A DNA stretch of 41,752 nucleotides from Ignavibacteria bacterium (GTDB lineage: Bacteria; Elusimicrobiota; Endomicrobiia; PHAN01), in contig JBGFRZ010000056.1 of the NCBI GenBank assembly GCA_041694835.1, forward strand, positions 1 to 41,752, in the 5' to 3' direction. The translations under genes were made by a program, and so were the position numbers. Of the stretch, positions 4,171 to 41,752 are shown one piece after another (positions within the stretch are counted from its first letter, which is position 1; every line of letters starts with the position of its first letter). The notes beneath the pieces are model-generated. The model worked only from the letters and a program-made list of their open reading frames with translations. It was not told where the DNA came from and did not search any database.

Positions 4171-5544
4171 TTATTCTTTTACAATTTTTGCCCAGAATTT
4201 TTTGGCAAGTTCGCGGGATTTCTCACAAATTAGTTCTTCATTTATGCCTTCAAGTTTTTTCTCTCTCATCAACGTTTTGCCGTTGACGATGACGGTGTCC
4301 ACGGTCGCATCTGCCATTCCAAAAATCAGATGGCCGAGAAAGTTGTCTTTTGTGAGCGGTGTCGGTGGCGTATAATCAAGGACAACCAAATCAGCAACGG
4401 CGCCGACTTCAATTTTACCTAAGCGAACATTTGTTCGGGGCGAACATTTGTTCGGGGCGAACATTTGTTCGGATATTTTTGAGTTGTTTTCGAGCAACAT
4501 CGTCGGAGCTTCGACGAACGCCACTCGCGGGTCTTTTTTGTTGTGCCTGTGAATGAGATAGGCGCATCTCATCTGACTGAGCATGTCGGAAGACATTCCA
4601 TCCGTCCCCAGTCCGACGGTAATGCCTTTTTTAAGCATCGTCAAAACATCGGCACAACCGACGGCATTGTTCATGTTGGATTCAGGGTTGTGGACGGCGT
4701 TTGTGCCTGTGTCTTTCATTATGTTCATCTCTTTTTCGTCGATATGAATGCAGTGGATAAGCGATGTTTTTGGTCCGAGCGCTCCGAATTTATTGAGCCG
4801 TTCTACAACTCTCATTCCATATTTTTTGATGGAGTCATCTTCGTCAGCCATGTCCTCGGCGCAATGGATGTGAAGTCCCACATTGAATTTTTTTGCAAGT
4901 TCTACATGTGCTTTTAGTGTGTCATTGTTGACGGTGAAAAGGGCGTGGAGTCCGACCATCCCTGTAACAAGTTGAGAGTTTAGAGTTGAGAGTTTAGAGA
5001 GAAAACGCTCATTTTCTTTCAGTCCTTCTTTGCCTTTGTTATATCTGTCCGAACTCCCGAAACAGAGGCAGGCGCGGATGCCTATTTCTTCGACGGCTTT
5101 TTGAATCGGGTCAAGCGAGCCGACTTGAAATCCCTGCGACTCGTGGTGGTCTATTATCGCGGTTGTTCCATTTTTGACGCATTCAATCAAGGGTATCAGT
5201 GATGAATAATAGATGTCCTCTTCGGTTAAAATTCTGTCGAGTTTCCACCAGAGTTTTTCGAGAACCTCTGTGAAATTTTTTGCTGGCTCGCCCGGTATAT
5301 ACATCCCGCGGGCGAATGTGGAATATAGGTGATGGTGTGCGTTTATGAAACCGGGGAGGATTATTTTTTTCTTTGCGTCTATGATTTTAAGATTGATTTT
5401 ATCGGCTTCAGTTTTGAAAACTTTAGACCTCACATCGTCGGTTTTGCCGATGTCTTTTATTAATCCGTCCCCAAACAACACTCCGCCGTTTTCAATGACA
5501 TCCGACGGCGTAATCACCGTTCCGTTGCACAACAAAGTAAGCAT
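4171..5544 (-). CDS. ssnA: Putative aminohydrolase SsnA
   Basis: PGFINAHHHLYSTFARG, LEKLWWKLD, IIDHH, HNPESNMNNAVG, GLGTDG; ATG at 5544 follows GGAGG. Confidence 0.85.
   Translation of the reverse strand: MLTLLCNGTVITPSDVIENGGVLFGDGLIKDIGKTDDVRSKVFKTEADKINLKIIDAKKKIILPGFINAHHHLYSTFARGMYIPGEPAKNFTEVLEKLWWKLDRILTEEDIYYSSLIPLIECVKNGTTAIIDHHESQGFQVGSLDPIQKAVEEIGIRACLCFGSSDRYNKGKEGLKENERFLSKLSTLNSQLVTGMVGLHALFTVNNDTLKAHVELAKKFNVGLHIHCAEDMADEDDSIKKYGMRVVERLNKFGALGPKTSLIHCIHIDEKEMNIMKDTGTNAVHNPESNMNNAVGCADVLTMLKKGITVGLGTDGMSSDMLSQMRCAYLIHRHNKKDPRVAFVEAPTMLLENNSKISEQMFAPNKCSPRTNVRLGKIEVGAVADLVVLDYTPPTPLTKDNFLGHLIFGMADATVDTVIVNGKTLMREKKLEGINEELICEKSRELAKKFWAKIVKE
4424..4471. repeat. Three tandem copies (17 bp period) of the palindrome CGAACATTTGTTCG inside ssnA
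   Basis: Copies at 4424-4437, 4441-4454 and 4458-4471, separated by GGG. Confidence 0.9.
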
Positions 5545-5720
5545 AAAAACCTCCGATTGCAATCAAACTTTCTATATATTAGACTTCATCGCAATTTTAC
5601 TATTTTTTGCATTTTTTACCACTTGCCGAATTTTTTAACAGCATTGCCACACACAATTATTTTGTCATTATATTGCTTAATGCTTTTTATTTTGTCAAAA
5701 AGCAAACCAATCACCTAAAT

Positions 5721-15967: not shown

Positions 15968-16020
15968 TTTTCCGCCTCCTGTCCTATTTATAAGCAGTAA
16001 GCAGTAAATAGGTAGTAATA

Positions 16021-16198
16021 TGAGCTCGTTGAAAAACCTTAATCTTTTGAACGATTTGGCAGTTTCAGGTTAAAAGTTGAAATCGTTTAGACCGCAATGT
16101 CTGACGAGCAAAGCGAGGAGTTTTGCGGTCTGATTGAAACTTTTAACCGTTAAGAAACTGCCCTTTAAGTGAAAAAGATGGGTTTTTCAACAATTTCA
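16021..16198. mobile_element. 178-bp MITE with imperfect 18-bp terminal inverted repeats and an apparent 3-bp ATA target duplication
   Basis: TGAGCTCGTTGAAAAACC / GGTTTTTCAACAATTTCA; long internal self-complementarity; near-identical copy at 41625. Confidence 0.8.
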
Positions 16199-23507: not shown

Positions 23508-24824
23508 TTACAACTCCCAGTTTATGCCCAGAAAGTAGTTAAAGACAGAGTAGTTGTATTTGTAATTTCCTTCGTATTTCATATTAGAAGACGTCGTTCT
23601 ATAACTTGAAGTAAGTTTCGCCGAAAGCCCCTTAAAGAGCGGATAGTTCAAACTTATTCCCGCCGTCTGCGTCGACTGATGTGTTTTTTCAGACAGATAC
23701 TCGCCGGAAGAATTTTGAGCAAGACGTTCTAAATAAAACCTGTTTGAGAACTCCGTAAAAAGCGAAAGTGCGGTATATGGTTCAAACTCTCCGAGATAGA
23801 AAGTTAAAGATGGAATGAATAAATTTTCGATGAAATTATAATGAGACGGAATATACTTCGTTCTCTTTGCGTCGTAAGAGTTCTGGTTGGAGTAGTGAAA
23901 CCGTATTGAGTCGGCAATCGACATTCTTAATCTCGAAAAAGATAGGTTGTATGAGCCGCCGAGCGTGTTGAGCATATCCGTTCTGAGAGCGTCTGAAAAC
24001 GAACCGTCGTCTTTTACAACTTTCTGGTCCATAAAATTTTTGTATATAAAGTCGTTTGAAATTCTCCAGTGCGACGACTCGGAAATCGCTCTTAACCATG
24101 AGAGTGCGAATGAGATGTTTGAGGTGTCAAGAACATTTTTTCCGGCATTGGTGGAAAGTTCGCGATATGTCGTCGTGTCAAGAGATATTTTAAACGCATC
24201 TTTTGAAATCAGCGACTGATAGTTCGGGTATGTCATTATTGAGTAATCCAGCCCCGCTTTAAGTGAATTTCCGCCGAAAATTTTCTCAAACTCGACACCG
24301 ATGACGGGGCGGGAGTAATCAAACAGCCCTTTTGCCCATCTTTCGTCTTTTGTCTCTTTCAGATATTCGAGTTTATAACCCGCTCTCGCTCCAAACTTTA
24401 ACGTCTCGGAAAATTTTGTGACAAACTTTAAGTTGACATTATGATTCTGGACTTCCTGAGTAATCGTCCCGCCGCCGACAAGTTCCCGGACATCTTTTGT
24501 GCCACGATACGAGCCGATATACATAGGAAGGAGCGCTGTGTCTTTTGAAAAGTTAACTACGGGACAAAGATATAAATCAATATTCCCGCCAAAGGAATTG
24601 TTGTTTTCCAGAAAATACTGACCGCCGCCCAAAAATGCAGAGGCGACAGGCGTTACTTTGACTTCAGAAAATAGAGCGCAAGTGCACAAGAGTATAAGTG
24701 CACAAGAGTATAAGTGCACAAGAGCAGAAGTGCGCAAAGATACAAGAGCTGTGGTTGCCGACCATGGTCGGCACAAGAGGTGCGTAAGTACGGCAGTAAA
24801 ACTAATTTTTTGTAGAGCAACCAT
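23508..24824 (-). CDS. Hypothetical outer-membrane beta-barrel with a repeat-expanded signal peptide
   Basis: Alternating aromatic/hydrophobic beta-strands, C-terminal YFLGINWEL; AGGAGA RBS. Confidence 0.65.
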   Translation of the reverse strand: MVALQKISFTAVLTHLLCRPWSATTALVSLRTSALVHLYSCALILLCTCALFSEVKVTPVASAFLGGGQYFLENNNSFGGNIDLYLCPVVNFSKDTALLPMYIGSYRGTKDVRELVGGGTITQEVQNHNVNLKFVTKFSETLKFGARAGYKLEYLKETKDERWAKGLFDYSRPVIGVEFEKIFGGNSLKAGLDYSIMTYPNYQSLISKDAFKISLDTTTYRELSTNAGKNVLDTSNISFALSWLRAISESSHWRISNDFIYKNFMDQKVVKDDGSFSDALRTDMLNTLGGSYNLSFSRLRMSIADSIRFHYSNQNSYDAKRTKYIPSHYNFIENLFIPSLTFYLGEFEPYTALSLFTEFSNRFYLERLAQNSSGEYLSEKTHQSTQTAGISLNYPLFKGLSAKLTSSYRTTSSNMKYEGNYKYNYSVFNYFLGINWEL

Positions 24825-24849
24825 CTTTTATATCTCCTATGATTATTTT

Positions 24850-25200
24850 AGGACGCAGATTTTCGCAGATTAAATGGATTTTAAAAACATCTGCGTCAAT
24901 CTTACCAAATCTGCGTTTATCTGCGTTCCATTTGTAAATTCCCCTTTACACACCCCTGTCCCCTCTTAATAGAGGGGATGCCCCTTCCCCATTTTCCACT
25001 CTATGAAAGAGTGTTTAGGGGTGTGCCAAGGGAATTAAAGGGGGATTTTATTATCATCCTGCTACACTCACTTCCTCACTTAATCGCTTCATCGCTCCAC
25101 CCACCCGCCTGCGCTCGGGACAATCCTCGCAATGACATCTGCGTTTATCGGAGCCTGTCCCCGAATGTCTTCAGAAGGCTGAAAGCCGACGAAAACTGAC
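24850..25200. repeat. Intergenic mosaic: CGCAGAT/ATCTGCG inverted arrays, nested CCCCT..AGGGG hairpins and a GTCATTGCGAG-type palindrome
   Basis: ggacgcagat..atctgcgttcc at 24851-24929; aaattccccttta..taaagggggatttt; tcctcgcaatgaca. Confidence 0.65.
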
Positions 25201-28540: not shown

Positions 28541-28778
28541 AACGAACAATCCATCCTTTGAGTTTCCCTCACAAAACCAAACGTGTCCAATTAAGACATC
28601 CGGTTCTTCAATATATACTCCAAAATAATCCACGGGTGGGGTTTCTCATCACTCTAATTCTTCTTTGGTAGTTAGCAGATTTTCCAGCCGACTTTCAACA
28701 ACCTTTTCTTTGTTTTCAGTTCGCTTTTCGATTTTTGTCTTCAGTTCTGCACTCCATCGCTCCATCGCTTCATCGCTC

Positions 28779-31664: not shown

Positions 31665-34409
31665 TCATAATACCAGAGGCTTCATCTCGTCCCAGTTTTT
31701 TCCGCATTTCAAATCAACCACGACGGGAATATCAAGTTTTATCGCTTGCTCCATCTCTTTTTTTATCCATGCCGCCGTCGAGGCAAGCTCCTTTTGAGAT
31801 ATTTCGAACAATAGCTCATCGTGAACCTGTACAAGCATTTTTATATCTTTCAACTTCCCGCCTTCATCTTTTAGCTTTCTATGAATATTTATCATCGCGA
31901 GCTTTATTATGTCGGCAGAACTCCCCTGGACGGGGGTGTTTGTGGCTACCCTTTCGGCGGAAGTTTTTATCTGGTTGTTTGAAGAGTTTATCTCGGGAAT
32001 ATATCTGATTCTGTTCAGAAGCGTCTTGACATAACCGTTCTTGCGCGCTGCGGCAATGTTTTGCTCAATCCATCTTTTTACGCCTGAATACTTCGAAAAA
32101 TAATTCTCTATGTAAGATGCGGCCATCGACTGATCTATCCCGAGAGATTGTGAAAGTCCGTAGGCGCTCATTCCGTAGATTATCCCGAAGTTTATCGTTT
32201 TTGCAACGCTCCTATTCGCTTCGCTTTTATTCGCGGAGTTTATCCTGATGAAATCGGGACTCGCCCCCGAATAAATTCGGGAGCTGCATTTATCATCGTA
32301 TTTTCCAAAAAGTTCCATCGCTGTACGAATATGGATATCCTCCCCTTTTGCGAAGGCGTCGCACATATTCTCGTCTCCGGAAAGGTGAGCAAGGATTCGT
32401 AAATCTATCTGCGAGTAATCGGCGGAAAGCAAAACAAAGCCGTCTTCGGAGATGAAACCGCGTCTTATCTTTCTTCCTTCCTCGGTTTTTACGGGGATGT
32501 TTTGAAGATTTGGGTCGCTTGAAGAAAGTCGACCGGTAGCTGTAACCGTCTGATTAAAGGAAGCGTGAATTCTATGGCTTTTTTCATCCGCCAGAGGCAG
32601 CAGAGCGTCGATATACGTGCTTTTTAGTTTCGAAAGCTCTCTGTGCAAAAGCATTTTTTGGGGAAGTTCATGCTGTGTGGAAAGAATCTTTAAAACCTCC
32701 TCGTCGGTAGATAGCCCCGTTTTTGTCTTCCTAACGGGGGGCAGTTTCAGTTTTTCGAATAAAACAAACGAAAGCTGTTTGGGTGAATTCAGGTTGAATT
32801 CCTCTCCGGCAATATCGCGAACTTCCCTTTCAATTTGCGATATCCTACTGCCAACTTCCATGGAAAGCTCCTTGTAGTACTCCACATCTATCTTTATTCC
32901 GAATTCTTCCATCCTTGAGAGAACTTCAAGAAGAGGCATCTCGACATCGAAAAATAAACCGGAAAGTTTCTTTTCATCAATCTCATCAGAAAACTTCTCG
33001 GCGAGACGTAAGACATAATGGCTATCGGCCATGGCGTAGTCGGCGGCGGATTCTACGGAAACTTCATCCATCGTTTTTTGACTTTTTCCTTTTCCAAGAA
33101 GTTCCTCTATCTCAACCATCCTGTCGCCCAAAACCTCAAAAACCACATCTTTGAGGCCGTGGTACTGCCGTGAAGGATTCAGGCAATATGAAGCAATCAT
33201 CGTGTCGAAGTAAATTCCTTTGAGATTCACACCGTGCTTTTTTAGGACAAGCATATCGAATTTCAGGTTGTGGCCGTATTTTTTTATTTTTTCGTCTTCA
33301 AGCAGAGGCTTTAATTTTTTTAATACTAACTCTTCTGAAAGCTGCTCCGGCGAACCCAGATATTTATGCCCGATAGGTATGTAGAAAGATTGGGCTATGT
33401 CCGTCGAGACTGATATCCCCACGATTTCAGCCTTCAGGAAATCTATTGAAGTCGTTTCAATATCAACTGAAGCGGATTTTACCCTGTTTATTTCGTCCAA
33501 AAGATTGTCTAAAGAGTTTTCGTCAAAAATTATTTTTTTAGAATACCCGGCCTTCGGCGAGACGGCGGGCAAAACTTCCTTCATAAGAGTCGTAAATTCG
33601 TATTTTTTCAGAAGTCCTGTTAGTTTTTCGTAATCAAAATCTCTCCTTTTTAAATCTTCTAATTCCAAATCCAGCGGCACCTCGCGGTTTAGCGTGGCAA
33701 GAAAACGGGAGTTGTAGGCGCTCTCTTTTTGAATTGAGAGTCTTTCTCTTATCTTTTCCGGAATTTTCCCGAGGTTTTCGTATATTCCATCAAGAGTAAC
33801 GTAGTTTTTTATCAGAGTGAGCGCTGTTACCTCACCAACGCCTTTCACACCGGGAATATTGTCAGATTTATCGCCCACAAGAGCGAAGTAATCGACAAGC
33901 CCCGAAGGAGGTATCCCGTATCTTTTTTCAACCTTGATGCTGTCGTAAAGCGTTTCTTTGAGTTCGTCTAAAACTTTCACGTTTCCGCCAACTATTTGGA
34001 GCGCATCCTTGTCGCCTGTCACTATTATTATCTCGCAGGTTTTGCCGCCGAATTTCTCGACGAATGTGGCTATTATGTCGTCGGCTTCGAAGCCTTCCAT
34101 CTCGATGAGCGGCAAATTAAACGCCCTTACGAAATCCTTCACTATAGGAAACTGATGCTTCAGTTCCTCATCGGCTATTTTTCTTGTGGCTTTGTATTGG
34201 GCGTAATTCTTATGCCGAAATGTTTTGGCGGGATAATCGAAGCAAACAGCGACATATTCGGGGGAGTATTTTTTCAGTATTTTTAAAAGCATCCTCGCCG
34301 CGCCGAATACCGCGTTTATCTGCTCGCCCTTTGAAGTAGTAAGCGGGGCGATGGCGTGGTATGCCCTGTGAACGATGTTATTCCCGTCGAGCAGAAAGAG
34401 TTTTTTCAT
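31665..34409 (-). CDS. polA: DNA polymerase I, with an in-frame repeat-derived insertion before motif B
   Basis: LLDG, YKATR, EADD, GDKSDNIPGV, DIET, TGRLSSSDPNLQNIP, ADYSQIDLR, AKTINFGIIYG, QVHDEL. Confidence 0.97.
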   Translation of the reverse strand: MKKLFLLDGNNIVHRAYHAIAPLTTSKGEQINAVFGAARMLLKILKKYSPEYVAVCFDYPAKTFRHKNYAQYKATRKIADEELKHQFPIVKDFVRAFNLPLIEMEGFEADDIIATFVEKFGGKTCEIIIVTGDKDALQIVGGNVKVLDELKETLYDSIKVEKRYGIPPSGLVDYFALVGDKSDNIPGVKGVGEVTALTLIKNYVTLDGIYENLGKIPEKIRERLSIQKESAYNSRFLATLNREVPLDLELEDLKRRDFDYEKLTGLLKKYEFTTLMKEVLPAVSPKAGYSKKIIFDENSLDNLLDEINRVKSASVDIETTSIDFLKAEIVGISVSTDIAQSFYIPIGHKYLGSPEQLSEELVLKKLKPLLEDEKIKKYGHNLKFDMLVLKKHGVNLKGIYFDTMIASYCLNPSRQYHGLKDVVFEVLGDRMVEIEELLGKGKSQKTMDEVSVESAADYAMADSHYVLRLAEKFSDEIDEKKLSGLFFDVEMPLLEVLSRMEEFGIKIDVEYYKELSMEVGSRISQIEREVRDIAGEEFNLNSPKQLSFVLFEKLKLPPVRKTKTGLSTDEEVLKILSTQHELPQKMLLHRELSKLKSTYIDALLPLADEKSHRIHASFNQTVTATGRLSSSDPNLQNIPVKTEEGRKIRRGFISEDGFVLLSADYSQIDLRILAHLSGDENMCDAFAKGEDIHIRTAMELFGKYDDKCSSRIYSGASPDFIRINSANKSEANRSVAKTINFGIIYGMSAYGLSQSLGIDQSMAASYIENYFSKYSGVKRWIEQNIAAARKNGYVKTLLNRIRYIPEINSSNNQIKTSAERVATNTPVQGSSADIIKLAMINIHRKLKDEGGKLKDIKMLVQVHDELLFEISQKELASTAAWIKKEMEQAIKLDIPVVVDLKCGKNWDEMKPLVL
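32209..32288. repeat. Composite palindromic insertion in polA
   Basis: CCCGAATAAATTCGGG and TCCTGATGAAATCGGGA hairpins, plus the 17-mer CTCCTATTCGCTTCGCT shared with 39868-39884. Confidence 0.82.
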
Positions 34410-34695
34410 TATTTTTTTTGAAGAAAAGCAGGCAGTGGCATCGTCCATCTCTTTCAATCTCTTCTTTGTGCCATTTGCAGGGACATACTTTGGGGCGGTC
34501 TTCGTCGGAATTGCCGGAAACCATACGACATGGACAGTACTGCTTGCCGTATTTGTTCTTGTTTCTGACGAGACCTTCTATTACGGTATTTAATATGTTT
34601 TCATCGGGGTTTAAATCGAAGCCCTCTTTTGCGGCGTATTTGAGAGCATAGTTTTTGACTTTCTCAAATTCTTCTTCGAATTTTTGAGTTTTCAT
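34378..34695 (-). CDS. Ferredoxin:thioredoxin reductase catalytic subunit
   Basis: YCPCR, CPCKW and CHCLLF motifs. Confidence 0.88.
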   Translation of the reverse strand: MKTQKFEEEFEKVKNYALKYAAKEGFDLNPDENILNTVIEGLVRNKNKYGKQYCPCRMVSGNSDEDRPKVCPCKWHKEEIERDGRCHCLLFFKKNNEKTLSARRE

Positions 34696-34718
34696 AATAA
34701 TTTCCCCAAATGAATTTT

Positions 34719-34840
34719 AGGACGCAGATTTACAGGATTGTCGCAGATAAAAAACCTCTTAACCACTCGGATTAAGTGGTGAGAATTAAGAAAAAAAATT
34801 TGATTCTTAAATCCGTTTTTTCTGCGTTCATCCGCGTCCC
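34719..34840. repeat. CGCAGAT 9-mer inverted-array element
   Basis: aggacgcagatttacaggattgtcgcagat ... tctgcgttcatccgcgtccc; related copies at 24850, 38644 and 38722. Confidence 0.7.
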
Positions 34841-38619: not shown

Positions 38620-39022
38620 ACTGATGAACACGGAAAACCAATTGGACGCAGATTTACAGGATTGTCACAGATAATTCTTAAATCCTGTTTTTCTGCGTTC
38701 ATCTGCGTTCAATTATTTTTTAGGACGCAGATTTACAGGATTATCGCAGATTAAAAACTTTACCACGAAATCACGAAAATTAGAAATCACAAAATTCTTT
38801 ACAAGTATTTTCGTGTTTTCGCGCTTTCGTGATTCAAATCTTTTTTCTTCTGTGTCCATTTGTGATTTCAATCTTTTTAATCCCATCAGAACCTGATTTG
38901 AATTTGCGTTCTGTATCGGTTTCTATCTGACCTCTGTCCTCTCATCTCTGCCCTCTACTGCTCTTATGCTCTTGTGCTCTTGTGCTCTAATGTACTTGCG
39001 CCAACCAGGGTCGGCGACTACA
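38620..39022. repeat. Intergenic mosaic of 7-9 nt arrays ending in a GTAG REP
   Basis: cgcagat arrays, cacgaaa/tttcgtg inverted arrays, tgctctt arrays, ccaaccagggtcggcgactaca. Confidence 0.65.
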
Positions 39023-39023
39023 A

Positions 39024-39947
39024 TCACTTTCCCGTTATGACATCGGGGTGAAAAAGAGGGGCGCCAAATTTGTCCACACCGAATTCTCCGATGATTCTCT
39101 GCCCTTCATGGCACCTTATGAACTCTGCAAATTTCTGAGCCAAATCATACTGCACCCACGGAAATCTAACGGGCGAAACGACGATTACCGAGTAAGGATT
39201 GTGAAGGATGGAATCGCCTTCTGCAATTTTTGCAAGGGCGTCTATTTCTTTTTGAATGTATAGCCATGTGCCGCTGTCAACGAGACAATACGCTTTTTTT
39301 TCGTTAGCGATTCTTAAAGTGGTTTCCTGCCCGGAGCCGCTCTCTATATACCATTTGCCCCCGGGTTTTATTCCGGATTTTTCCCATATAGAGATTTCTT
39401 TCTTGTGGGTGCCTGAGTTGTCGCCGCGGGAGATGAAGGGTGAATTCGTCTCGGATATTTTTTTGAAAGCGACTGCCGCGTCGTCAAGTCCTTTTGCGTT
39501 TGCGGGGTCATTTTTGGGACCAACGAGCAAAAAGTTGTTGTGCATAACATCTAATCTTTCGACCCCAAAACCGTCCGCAACGAATCTTTCCTCCGCAACT
39601 CTATCGTGAACGAGCAACACATCAGCGTTGCCGTCTCTTGCAAGACGTATCGCATGGCCCGTGCCGACGGCAATTACCCTTACGCGGCAGTTATACTTTT
39701 GTTCAAACGTCGGGATGAGCACATCGAAAAGCCCCGTGTCCTGAGTAGATGTCGTCGAAGCAAGGGTAAGGAGGGGTTTTCGTCTTGCTTCAACAACACC
39801 GCCGGCAAATAAAAAAATCCCGATTAACATAATTAACCGGGAGAGACGCAAAAAAAATATAACACACCTCCTATTCGCTTCGCTCTCCCCCAGTTGAAAC
39901 TGAGGGCTTTTTCGGGCAGTAGATTCGTATTTTCCCTCTAATATCAT
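39024..39947 (-). CDS. tupA: Tungstate ABC transporter substrate-binding protein
   Basis: STTSTQDTGL, AVGTG.A, DVLLVH, FISRGDNSGTHKKE, L.NPY.VI. Confidence 0.88.
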   Translation of the reverse strand: MILEGKYESTARKSPQFQLGESEANRRCVIFFLRLSRLIMLIGIFLFAGGVVEARRKPLLTLASTTSTQDTGLFDVLIPTFEQKYNCRVRVIAVGTGHAIRLARDGNADVLLVHDRVAEERFVADGFGVERLDVMHNNFLLVGPKNDPANAKGLDDAAVAFKKISETNSPFISRGDNSGTHKKEISIWEKSGIKPGGKWYIESGSGQETTLRIANEKKAYCLVDSGTWLYIQKEIDALAKIAEGDSILHNPYSVIVVSPVRFPWVQYDLAQKFAEFIRCHEGQRIIGEFGVDKFGAPLFHPDVITGK

Positions 39948-41567: not shown

Positions 41568-41624
41568 AACTTCCTCCCATTCTCCAGGTTATTAAAAAAT
41601 TAGAGTTTTTGAATGGCTTAATTA

Positions 41625-41752
41625 TGAGCTCGTTGAAAAACCTTGATTTTTTGAACGATTTGGCAGTTTTAGGTTAAAAGTTGAAATCGTTTAGACCGCA
41701 ATGTCTGACGGGCAAAACAAGGAGTTTTGCGGTCTGATTGAAACTTTTAACC
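41625..41752. mobile_element. Second copy of the 16021 MITE, cut by the window end
   Basis: Aligns to 16021-16148 with about 6 substitutions (counted by eye). Confidence 0.85.

Follow-up and report, generated by a model that had tools for sequence, protein, structure and literature searches.

The stretch of DNA analysed here (the window) comprises 41,752 nucleotides, contig JBGFRZ010000056.1 of assembly GCA_041694835.1, deposited as Ignavibacteria bacterium and placed by GTDB in the Elusimicrobiota; the source names of the nearest database proteins likewise point to Elusimicrobiota/Endomicrobiia. It carries on its minus strand polA (31665-34457), the gene for DNA polymerase I. The loop of the fingers subdomain that directly precedes the O-helix of this enzyme is enlarged by DNA derived from a dispersed palindromic repeat of the same genome and read in frame, and this insert is probably tolerated, forming a surface loop of a polymerase that still works. 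The source genome (G000) is a groundwater-type Elusimicrobiota genome of 1.9 Mb in 89 contigs, 97% complete. In the following, G001 and G002 denote two genomes of the same family, P0001 the PolA of the window and P0002 a PolA from another assembly.

polA was the sole DNA polymerase I gene found in the source genome (one match). Its longest open reading frame (ORF) has 930 codons, and its probable start is the ATG at 34409 (MKKLF...), with which M1 of P0002 aligns. The Pfam families PF02739, PF01367, PF01612 and PF00476 were detected on the ORF, so that all three domains, 5'-3' exonuclease, 3'-5' exonuclease and DNA_pol_A, are present. The protein scored 1076.6 bits against NCBIfam NF004397 (cut-off 720) and 964 bits against TIGR00593 (cut-off 600), and the NCBIfam and Pfam scans yielded solely polymerase and nuclease families. 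Polymerase motifs A (SADYSQIDLR), B (RSVAKTINFGIIYG) and C (QVHDELLFE) are intact in the ORF. The R-x3-K-x3-F-x3-Y spacing of the O-helix was read directly from the sequence, and its four residues (R230, K234, F238 and Y242 in fragment numbering), which we take to be R754, K758, F762 and Y766 in E. coli numbering, were invariant across an alignment of 61 sequences. The polymerase domain was 53-72% identical to the 60 aligned database PolAs (nearest 72%). The 930 codons contain neither stops nor frameshifts, and the frame runs on at both sides of the insert.

Between ELFG (residues 715-718) and the Arg equivalent to R754, the loop spans 30 codons, K719-N748 (32214-32303, minus strand), and reads ELFG-KYDDKCSSRIYSGASPDFIRINSANKSEAN-RSVAKTINFGIIYG; the 30 residues reported in a first-pass annotation of the window, made from the letters and the list of ORFs, were thus confirmed in the ORF. 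The codons of the O-helix and motif B follow directly (R749-Y761, RSVAKTINFGIIY, 32175-32213, minus strand). Bst Pol I has 10 residues at the same loop, and the HMMER gaps against it amount to 8 + 12 = 20. Loop length was gauged by the number of residues separating the conserved DIH from K..NF, which is 46 in polA of the source genome and 22-30 at 58 loci from 50 other Elusimicrobiota genomes (one locus mis-anchored at 13). A search of 5.8 billion proteins provided the 120 best matches, 119 of them carrying the motif; among the 118 other than P0001, the distance was 22-27 in 117 and 58 in P0002. In G001 and G002, 68% identical in the polymerase domain, the region reads ELFG-DKKEDF(D/E)SL-RR, with a 9-residue loop. 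Alignment with relatives had been set beforehand as the test of the insertion, and none of the 50 other genomes showed an equally long loop. Since the loop has the standard length in these genomes and in 117 of the 118 database PolAs, the long form is specific to the source genome.

The inserted DNA is repeat-derived. In a blastn-short search with 32190-32310 against the genome, three successive parts of the insert were each matched on their own, exactly and over 15-27 nt, and with the sequence contexts of these matches the whole match to dispersed repeat modules of the genome covers 32209-32290. An nhmmer profile, seeded with five intergenic composite loci (contigs C70, C27, C81, C71 and C86) and excluding polA, matched 32227-32294 with E=3.6e-10. 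This composite had 12 matches in the genome at E<=1e-7 and 33 at E<=0.05; for 30 of the 33, no open frame of >=250 codons extends across the match, and the three exceptions include polA. Expected word counts derive from a genomic first-order Markov model. The 17-mer CTCCTATTCGCTTCGCT occurs in 3 exact copies (0.00027 expected), the 18-mer TATTCGCGGAGTTTATCC likewise in 3 (0.00011 expected) and the 16-mer core of the second hairpin, CCCGAATAAATTCGGG, in 4 (0.0034 expected). Two copies of the 17-mer were reached in 0 of 100 shuffles of the window. No Rfam family was found in 32100-32400 at E<=1.

Along the coding strand of polA, a degenerate tag of the repetitive extragenic palindromic (REP) type, ATGCAGCT (family consensus ATGTAGCC, 32282-32289), is followed by hairpin 2, CCCGAATAAATTCGGG (CCCGAAT AA ATTCGGG, 32266-32281), which encodes S-R-I-Y-S-G. 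Hairpin 1, CCTGATGAAATCGGG (CCTGAT GAA ATCGGG with one T-G pair, 32244-32258), takes the place in the composite at which the hairpin varies between copies. The 18-mer linker module TATTCGCGGAGTTTATCC (32228-32245) and the 17-mer module CTCCTATTCGCTTCGCT (32209-32225) complete the series, the latter reading AGCGAAGCGAATAGGAG on the minus strand, that is, S-E-A-N-R-(S). At the five intergenic loci the composite consists, in the orientation of the polA coding strand, of ATGTAGCC, hairpin 2 (CCCGAATT[T/C]ATTCGGGGG), TGAGC, a variable hairpin 1 and (G)ATAAACTCCGCGAATAGG. The module order in polA (tag, hairpin 2, linker, hairpin 1 and TAAACTCCGCGAATA (TAAACTCCGC...)) is that of the five intergenic copies, and a single composite insertion therefore explains the polA layout. 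The nested insertions proposed in the first-pass annotation are not needed, one composite with the adjacent 17-mer explaining the layout equally well. Its description of two hairpins held: both are present in the RNA centroid fold. The 91-nt RNA stretch had a minimum free energy of -27.3 kcal/mol (z = -2.27; 3 of 200 shuffles folded equally well) and can form two local hairpins, and folding of the plus strand with DNA energies was unremarkable (z = -1.1).

On the coding strand, two of the three frames of the element contain stops, and the single open one is the frame in use; on the opposite strand one of three is open. About 26 loop residues are accordingly encoded by the repeat, with a net gain of about 20-21. 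The data bear out the earlier proposal that the extra residues are repeat-derived DNA placed in frame just before the O-helix.

A model of the polymerase domain was obtained with AlphaFold2 from a 411-residue fragment and a 61-row alignment. The mean predicted local distance difference test score (pLDDT) was 89.9, with values of about 90 or more outside the insert and one other low loop; the 10-residue blocks containing the insert scored 52, 54 and 72, forming a low-confidence loop. The O-helix was modelled as a helix over fragment residues 225-241, beginning within SEAN. Foldseek superposed the model on the Bst Pol I large fragment with a template modelling (TM) score of 0.88 and a root-mean-square deviation of 2.5 Å. 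Structure prediction, proposed earlier as a check of this locus, thus retains the fold and the O-helix. The added segment is most likely a flexible loop at the surface.

From these data, a short composite palindromic repeat, belonging to an otherwise intergenic mosaic family, would have become an in-frame part of polA. The site would be the fingers loop between helix N and the O-helix, where a 17-mer module rich in GCGAA adjoins the composite. With motifs A and C, the O-helix and the overall fold untouched, the enzyme is most likely still working, and the insert would represent selfish or passenger DNA tolerated by selection, or neutral, and not a designed feature. It may have arrived by REP-type single-strand transposition or by repair templated from an intergenic copy.

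On its sequence features the element is here called REP-like or, as its hairpins form a mosaic, like a bacterial interspersed mosaic element (BIME). The composite is mostly extragenic, and its hairpins are joined by fixed linkers in conserved order, as in a BIME-like mosaic. The hairpin-2 class, CCCGAAT[AGT]AATTCGGG, has 10 genomic copies; a GTAG tag two bases off the stem is exact in 5 of the 10 and one base off in 3, including polA (GCAG). The GTAG tag is described as defining the GTAG-type REPs (PMC3733652). The source genome holds many other hairpin families and one gene for a Y1 transposase (PF01797, 48.5 bits), for which NCBIfam gives 'REP-associated tyrosine transposase' as the top match (RAYT; NF047646, 62.7 bits, under the cut-off of 80). 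The gene lies on contig C41:8790-9122 (locus L061, ORF 1468-2178) and is flanked by inverted copies of AATTGAGGACCGTCCCCAATT, a sequence with 4 genomic copies.

The 18-mer module is also abundant in G001, which represents a sister genus. G001 gave 31 matches to the region of this module, of which 24 were 95% identical along a stretch of 22 nt containing the module, and its mosaics combine the 18-mer with TTCGCTTCGCT; in the other 19 relatives searched, the 18-mer module gave no match at E<=0.01. At loci L080-L085 of G001, mosaics of units composed of GAGATTCTTCGC joined to GGAGTTTATCCTGAG... are inserted into TTCGC-TTCGCTCAGAATGAC, and the junction of TTCGC with GGAGTTTATCC is common to the G001 mosaics and polA of the source genome.

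In-frame inserts of this kind were also found in at least three further genes of the source genome, each checked against relatives. In dapF (contig C83:211-1125, locus L065), a 24-residue insert, AKPVNSVRSNPALSGCRPDLSGRT, is built around the abundant hairpin CCCGATAAATCGGG and lies between the two epimerase halves; it is absent in all five relatives. An amidohydrolase ORF of the window (4177-5562, minus strand) carries three tandem copies of the 17-nt unit GCGAACATTTGTTCGGG at 4423-4473, which read SEQMFAPNKCSPRTNVR, each unit in a different frame, with a net gain of 9 residues; three of three relatives (84-85% identical) have AERVFGK or similar in place of the array. A YHS-domain/ArsP-type permease (contig C66:31345-32622, locus L062) has 19-20 extra linker residues, containing GTGAGCGAAGCGAA (the GCGAA module) and a hairpin 2 of the polA family, absent in G001 and G002 (2 of 2). 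Two additional genes are candidates: a GT4 glycosyltransferase (C80:20118-21464, L064), whose interdomain linker is unusually long and contains the hairpin CCCTCTATTAAGAGGG, and a pyridine-nucleotide disulphide oxidoreductase, thioredoxin-reductase-like (C70:7171-8187, L063), with RTNVRPEQMFG from the 17-nt unit inside its domain. Other hits were discarded. A 14-nt match of GGGATAAACTCCGC in a 319-codon ORF (HPr kinase by eye) lies in continuous coding sequence and looks like chance. The 14-nt palindrome CGAACAAATGTTCG has 49 genomic copies, and many of those inside ORFs (e.g. NIEHLFG) look, by eye, like ordinary coding sequence; the tandem array at 4423-4473 was kept. A 12-mer screen for repeats in long ORFs was too permissive, being dominated by common A/T-rich words, and was not used.

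Several observations weigh against the reading of a tolerated REP/BIME-like insert. With 10 copies of hairpin 2, the copy number is below the REP norm, usually of >100 copies per genome (PMC2817692). The RAYT-like gene was considered as mover of the hairpins and set aside, as it is flanked by a different inverted repeat, AATTGAGGACCGTCCCCAATT, and not by hairpin 1 or 2. The features of a MITE were likewise not seen. On non-systematic inspection, the element ends (ATGTAGCC... and ...GCGAATAGG) are not mutual inverted copies, and a consistent target duplication was not seen, GCGAA flanking 2 of the 5 intergenic copies and ATAAA the 63-nt version in polA. The insert of P0002, described below, could mean that the insertion is old and was later remodelled, and is not a recent event. 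The public read run X1 contained 7% of the sampled words and gave six short pieces at 80% likeness, none of them over 32206-32473. Finally, a functional cost or change is quite possible, the insert ending one residue before the triphosphate-binding Arg.

The origin of this Arg provides the strongest alternative. The AGG codon of R749, equivalent to R754 and first position of R-x3-K-x3-F-x3-Y, occupies 32211-32213 (minus strand) and lies inside the 17-mer, whose minus strand was confirmed to read AGC GAA GCG AAT AGG AG, or S-E-A-N-R-(S), as had been stated. According to this alternative, the loop before the O-helix is a hot spot at which the terminal module AGCGAAGCGAATAGG displaced the original end of the loop, its AGG becoming the catalytic R754 equivalent; the site would have been hit independently in at least two lineages. 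In its favour, the 17-mer has 3 exact genomic copies, and the repeat match of about 80 nt exceeds the net gain of about 63 nt, as if original codons had been replaced. For GCGAATAGGAG, 7 genomic occurrences compare with an expectation of 0.8. Of the six copies outside polA, five have an ATG 5-11 nt downstream and the sixth belongs to the leader of a TupA-like gene; since all six adjoin starts or a leader, GCGAATAGGAG represents elsewhere a junction of repeat and ribosome-binding site.

A candidate for the net insertion is a segment of 63 nt, codons C724-K744 (32226-32288, minus strand), with ATAAA just before it and again as its last five bases; we infer these boundaries from the sequence. Excision of the 63 nt leaves KYDDKSEAN, 9 residues, the exact loop length of G001 and G002. 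On this reading the SEAN-R codons would predate the insertion. Moreover, Arg is present at the R754-equivalent position in every relative examined, and several class-level relatives have AAT-xxx-AGA-AGC (N-x-R-S) at this site, which could make AAT AGG AGC ancestral in part. The claim that the repeat supplies the Arg therefore stands in one respect, as the codon does lie inside the repeat match, while a supply by the repeat is the less probable reading in view of the Arg already found in all relatives and of a SEAN-R that may be older than the 63 nt.

The copy of the 17-mer that had been assigned to tupA was also re-evaluated. The identity between 32209-32225 and 39868-39884 is exact, and a third exact copy lies on contig C70; the copy at 39868-39884, ending in AGGAGG, is however located upstream of the TupA-homologous part of ORF 39024-39947, the TupA match starting at ORF residue 60. 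It is probably leader or ribosome-binding-site DNA and not TupA coding sequence. The longest TupA-like ORF begins 60 residues ahead of the TupA match (39868-39947), and the presence of the 17-mer and AGGAGG in this extension suggests that the real start is a downstream TTG or ATG (MRLSRLIMLIGIFLFAGG...).

P0002 bears on the same alternative. Its loop of 42 residues is longer and different in sequence and also ends in SEAN-R, a sequence exclusive to P0001 and P0002 and found in 0 of the 117 other database PolAs, so that SEAN-R is limited to the two insert-bearing proteins; their inserts differ except in the final residues. In a careful 11-row tree with the loop masked, from which P0008-P0035 were left out except for four outgroups, P0001-P0007 formed one clade (100/100) with P0002 as first branch (88/92), and P0001, P0004 and the rest were not resolved among themselves. 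P0001 and P0002 were hence not paired as sisters, which favours independent events, although support for the node is moderate. The data are compatible with a single old insertion as well as with two independent insertions. Two exact and two degenerate pattern scans of JGI metagenome contigs and GTDB species genomes for the DNA of P0002 gave no match, a further point against the alternative. Overall, a recurrent landing site of these hairpin modules before the O-helix in this family of Elusimicrobiota, with a repeat AGG (elsewhere part of the ribosome-binding AGGAG) co-opted as active-site Arg by two lineages independently, is judged to be considerably less probable than the tolerated loop; this scenario, and likewise the supply of the Arg by the repeat, has about one chance in four in our estimation. 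Two further features of P0002 were recorded: a second insert of about 21 residues (about 862-882) before motif C, KVKGERLKVKSQKFNVKDVADSSEAEGERLKD, with a GERLK duplication, and the loop peptide PPIHRG, which could be encoded by a perfect hairpin, on back-translation only.

An insert that alters the enzyme in a selected way, through closing of the fingers, dNTP access or fidelity, giving a mutator or an altered repair polymerase, is a rather improbable explanation. The insert does abut the N-terminus of the O-helix directly, an insert is likewise retained at this site in a second lineage, and PMC3733652 offers the speculation that mutator states may arise from REPs located in genes of repair and replication. 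Against this explanation, the insert is modelled as a low-confidence loop, the inserts of P0001 and P0002 are dissimilar except for the last residues, and the similar inserts in linkers and loops of unrelated housekeeping genes fit passive tolerance.

It is very unlikely that the insert is an assembly artefact or a rare population variant, in which polA reads were joined through a repeat foreign to the real gene. The assembly is a draft of 89 contigs with many short repeats and the site is devoid of read pieces from X1, but the insert is shorter than a typical read, the sole stop-free frame is the one used and polA is in frame on both sides, three other genes have the same kind of in-frame insert, and P0002, which stems from an independent assembly, carries an insert at this very codon position. 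Least probable of all is a decaying polymerase domain, disabled by the insert and retaining solely the 5' nuclease function: the insert abuts the active-site helix, and in several bacteria it is for its 5'-3' nuclease that Pol I is essential, but the 930 uninterrupted codons, the conservation of every polymerase motif, the 53-72% identity to 60 database PolAs and a whole-protein score far over the equivalog cut-off argue against it.

A tolerated, repeat-derived loop has precedents. The occurrence of intragenic REPs, including those in DNA polymerase I genes, is already published: GTAG and CGTC REPs occur within DNA synthesis and repair genes, and REP dimers or grouped repeats encode 20-30 residues, a neutral placement in loops or linkers being suggested (Di Nocera et al. 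2013, PMC3733652, in the parts available). The polA element resembles these short tagged palindromes in being mainly extragenic and sometimes in frame in genes, and differs in its degenerate tag (GCAG), its hairpin class of 10 copies and a RAYT-like gene that is not linked to the hairpins. The main text of PMC3733652 has 0 occurrences of 'Elusimicrobi', and a site adjacent to the O-helix with the Arg codon in the repeat match was not seen in the available parts of that paper.

The Rickettsia palindromic elements (RPEs) are selfish palindromes found in frame in many unrelated housekeeping genes, apparently compatible with fold and function (Ogata et al. 2000, as reported in the part of PMC10969869 available). 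The similarity, one of behaviour, lies in the in-frame inserts of at least four unrelated genes of the source genome (polA, dapF, amidohydrolase and YHS-permease). RPEs are about 100-150 bp, with a conserved peptide per family, and specific to Rickettsia, whereas the present elements are shorter, modular and from another host. With BIMEs and REP/RAYT systems, as outlined in PMC2817692, the family shares the mosaic of hairpins and fixed linkers in conserved order and a single-copy RAYT-type Y1 transposase; it differs in the low copy number and in the RAYT-like gene, which is below the cut-off and flanked by another inverted repeat. Lineage insertions of family A polymerases likewise extend the conserved PolA fold by additional segments, in some cases within the fingers; those presented in the part of PMC10201439 available are structured, of about 50 or more residues and subfamily-defining, in contrast to the insert of polA, of about 20 residues, predicted to be floppy, found in one genome and derived from a DNA repeat.

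The source genome is rich in short hairpin families and in families of 7-8-nt tandem repeats, the majority of which avoid long ORFs. Tandem 8-nt arrays of the GCACAAG[A/T] and CATCGCT type are located at 24673-24752, 25069-25105 and 28742-28778 of the window, and arrays of 7-8 nt, including CGAATAG/CAAATAG and CAGAGGAC, are among the commonest genomic 12-14-mers. Copies of the repeat TTTTAGGACGCAGATTTACAGGATT... occur at 34714-34758, 38639-38758 and 24845-24862, and TAGGACGCAGATTT has 75 genomic copies. A direct repeat of 130 nt, 95% identical, is present at 16019-16148 and 41623-41752; the second copy reaches the contig end, and this repeat may have broken the assembly. An ORF scan also revealed an open frame of 6,366 codons on contig C89:2-19099, which would encode a giant protein.

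The polA insert adds a case, from a little-studied phylum, of mobile palindromic DNA within a core enzyme of replication and repair, bordering the active site, and the same phenomenon affects several housekeeping genes of one genome, as with the RPEs of Rickettsia. It constitutes a natural experiment on the amount of additional loop that a family A polymerase can accommodate at the hinge joining helix N to the O-helix. It also bears on the question whether fidelity is altered by REPs inserted into repair genes, an idea that is published and still a speculation in the source available (PMC3733652). The O-helix position, the Arg codon in the repeat match and a second lineage with an insert at the same site make it well suited as a test case. 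Only if the enzyme proved to be altered in its properties would the practical value be more than modest. If the Arg were indeed borne by the repeat, selfish repeat DNA would provide a catalytic residue of an essential polymerase, and would have done so in two lineages independently.

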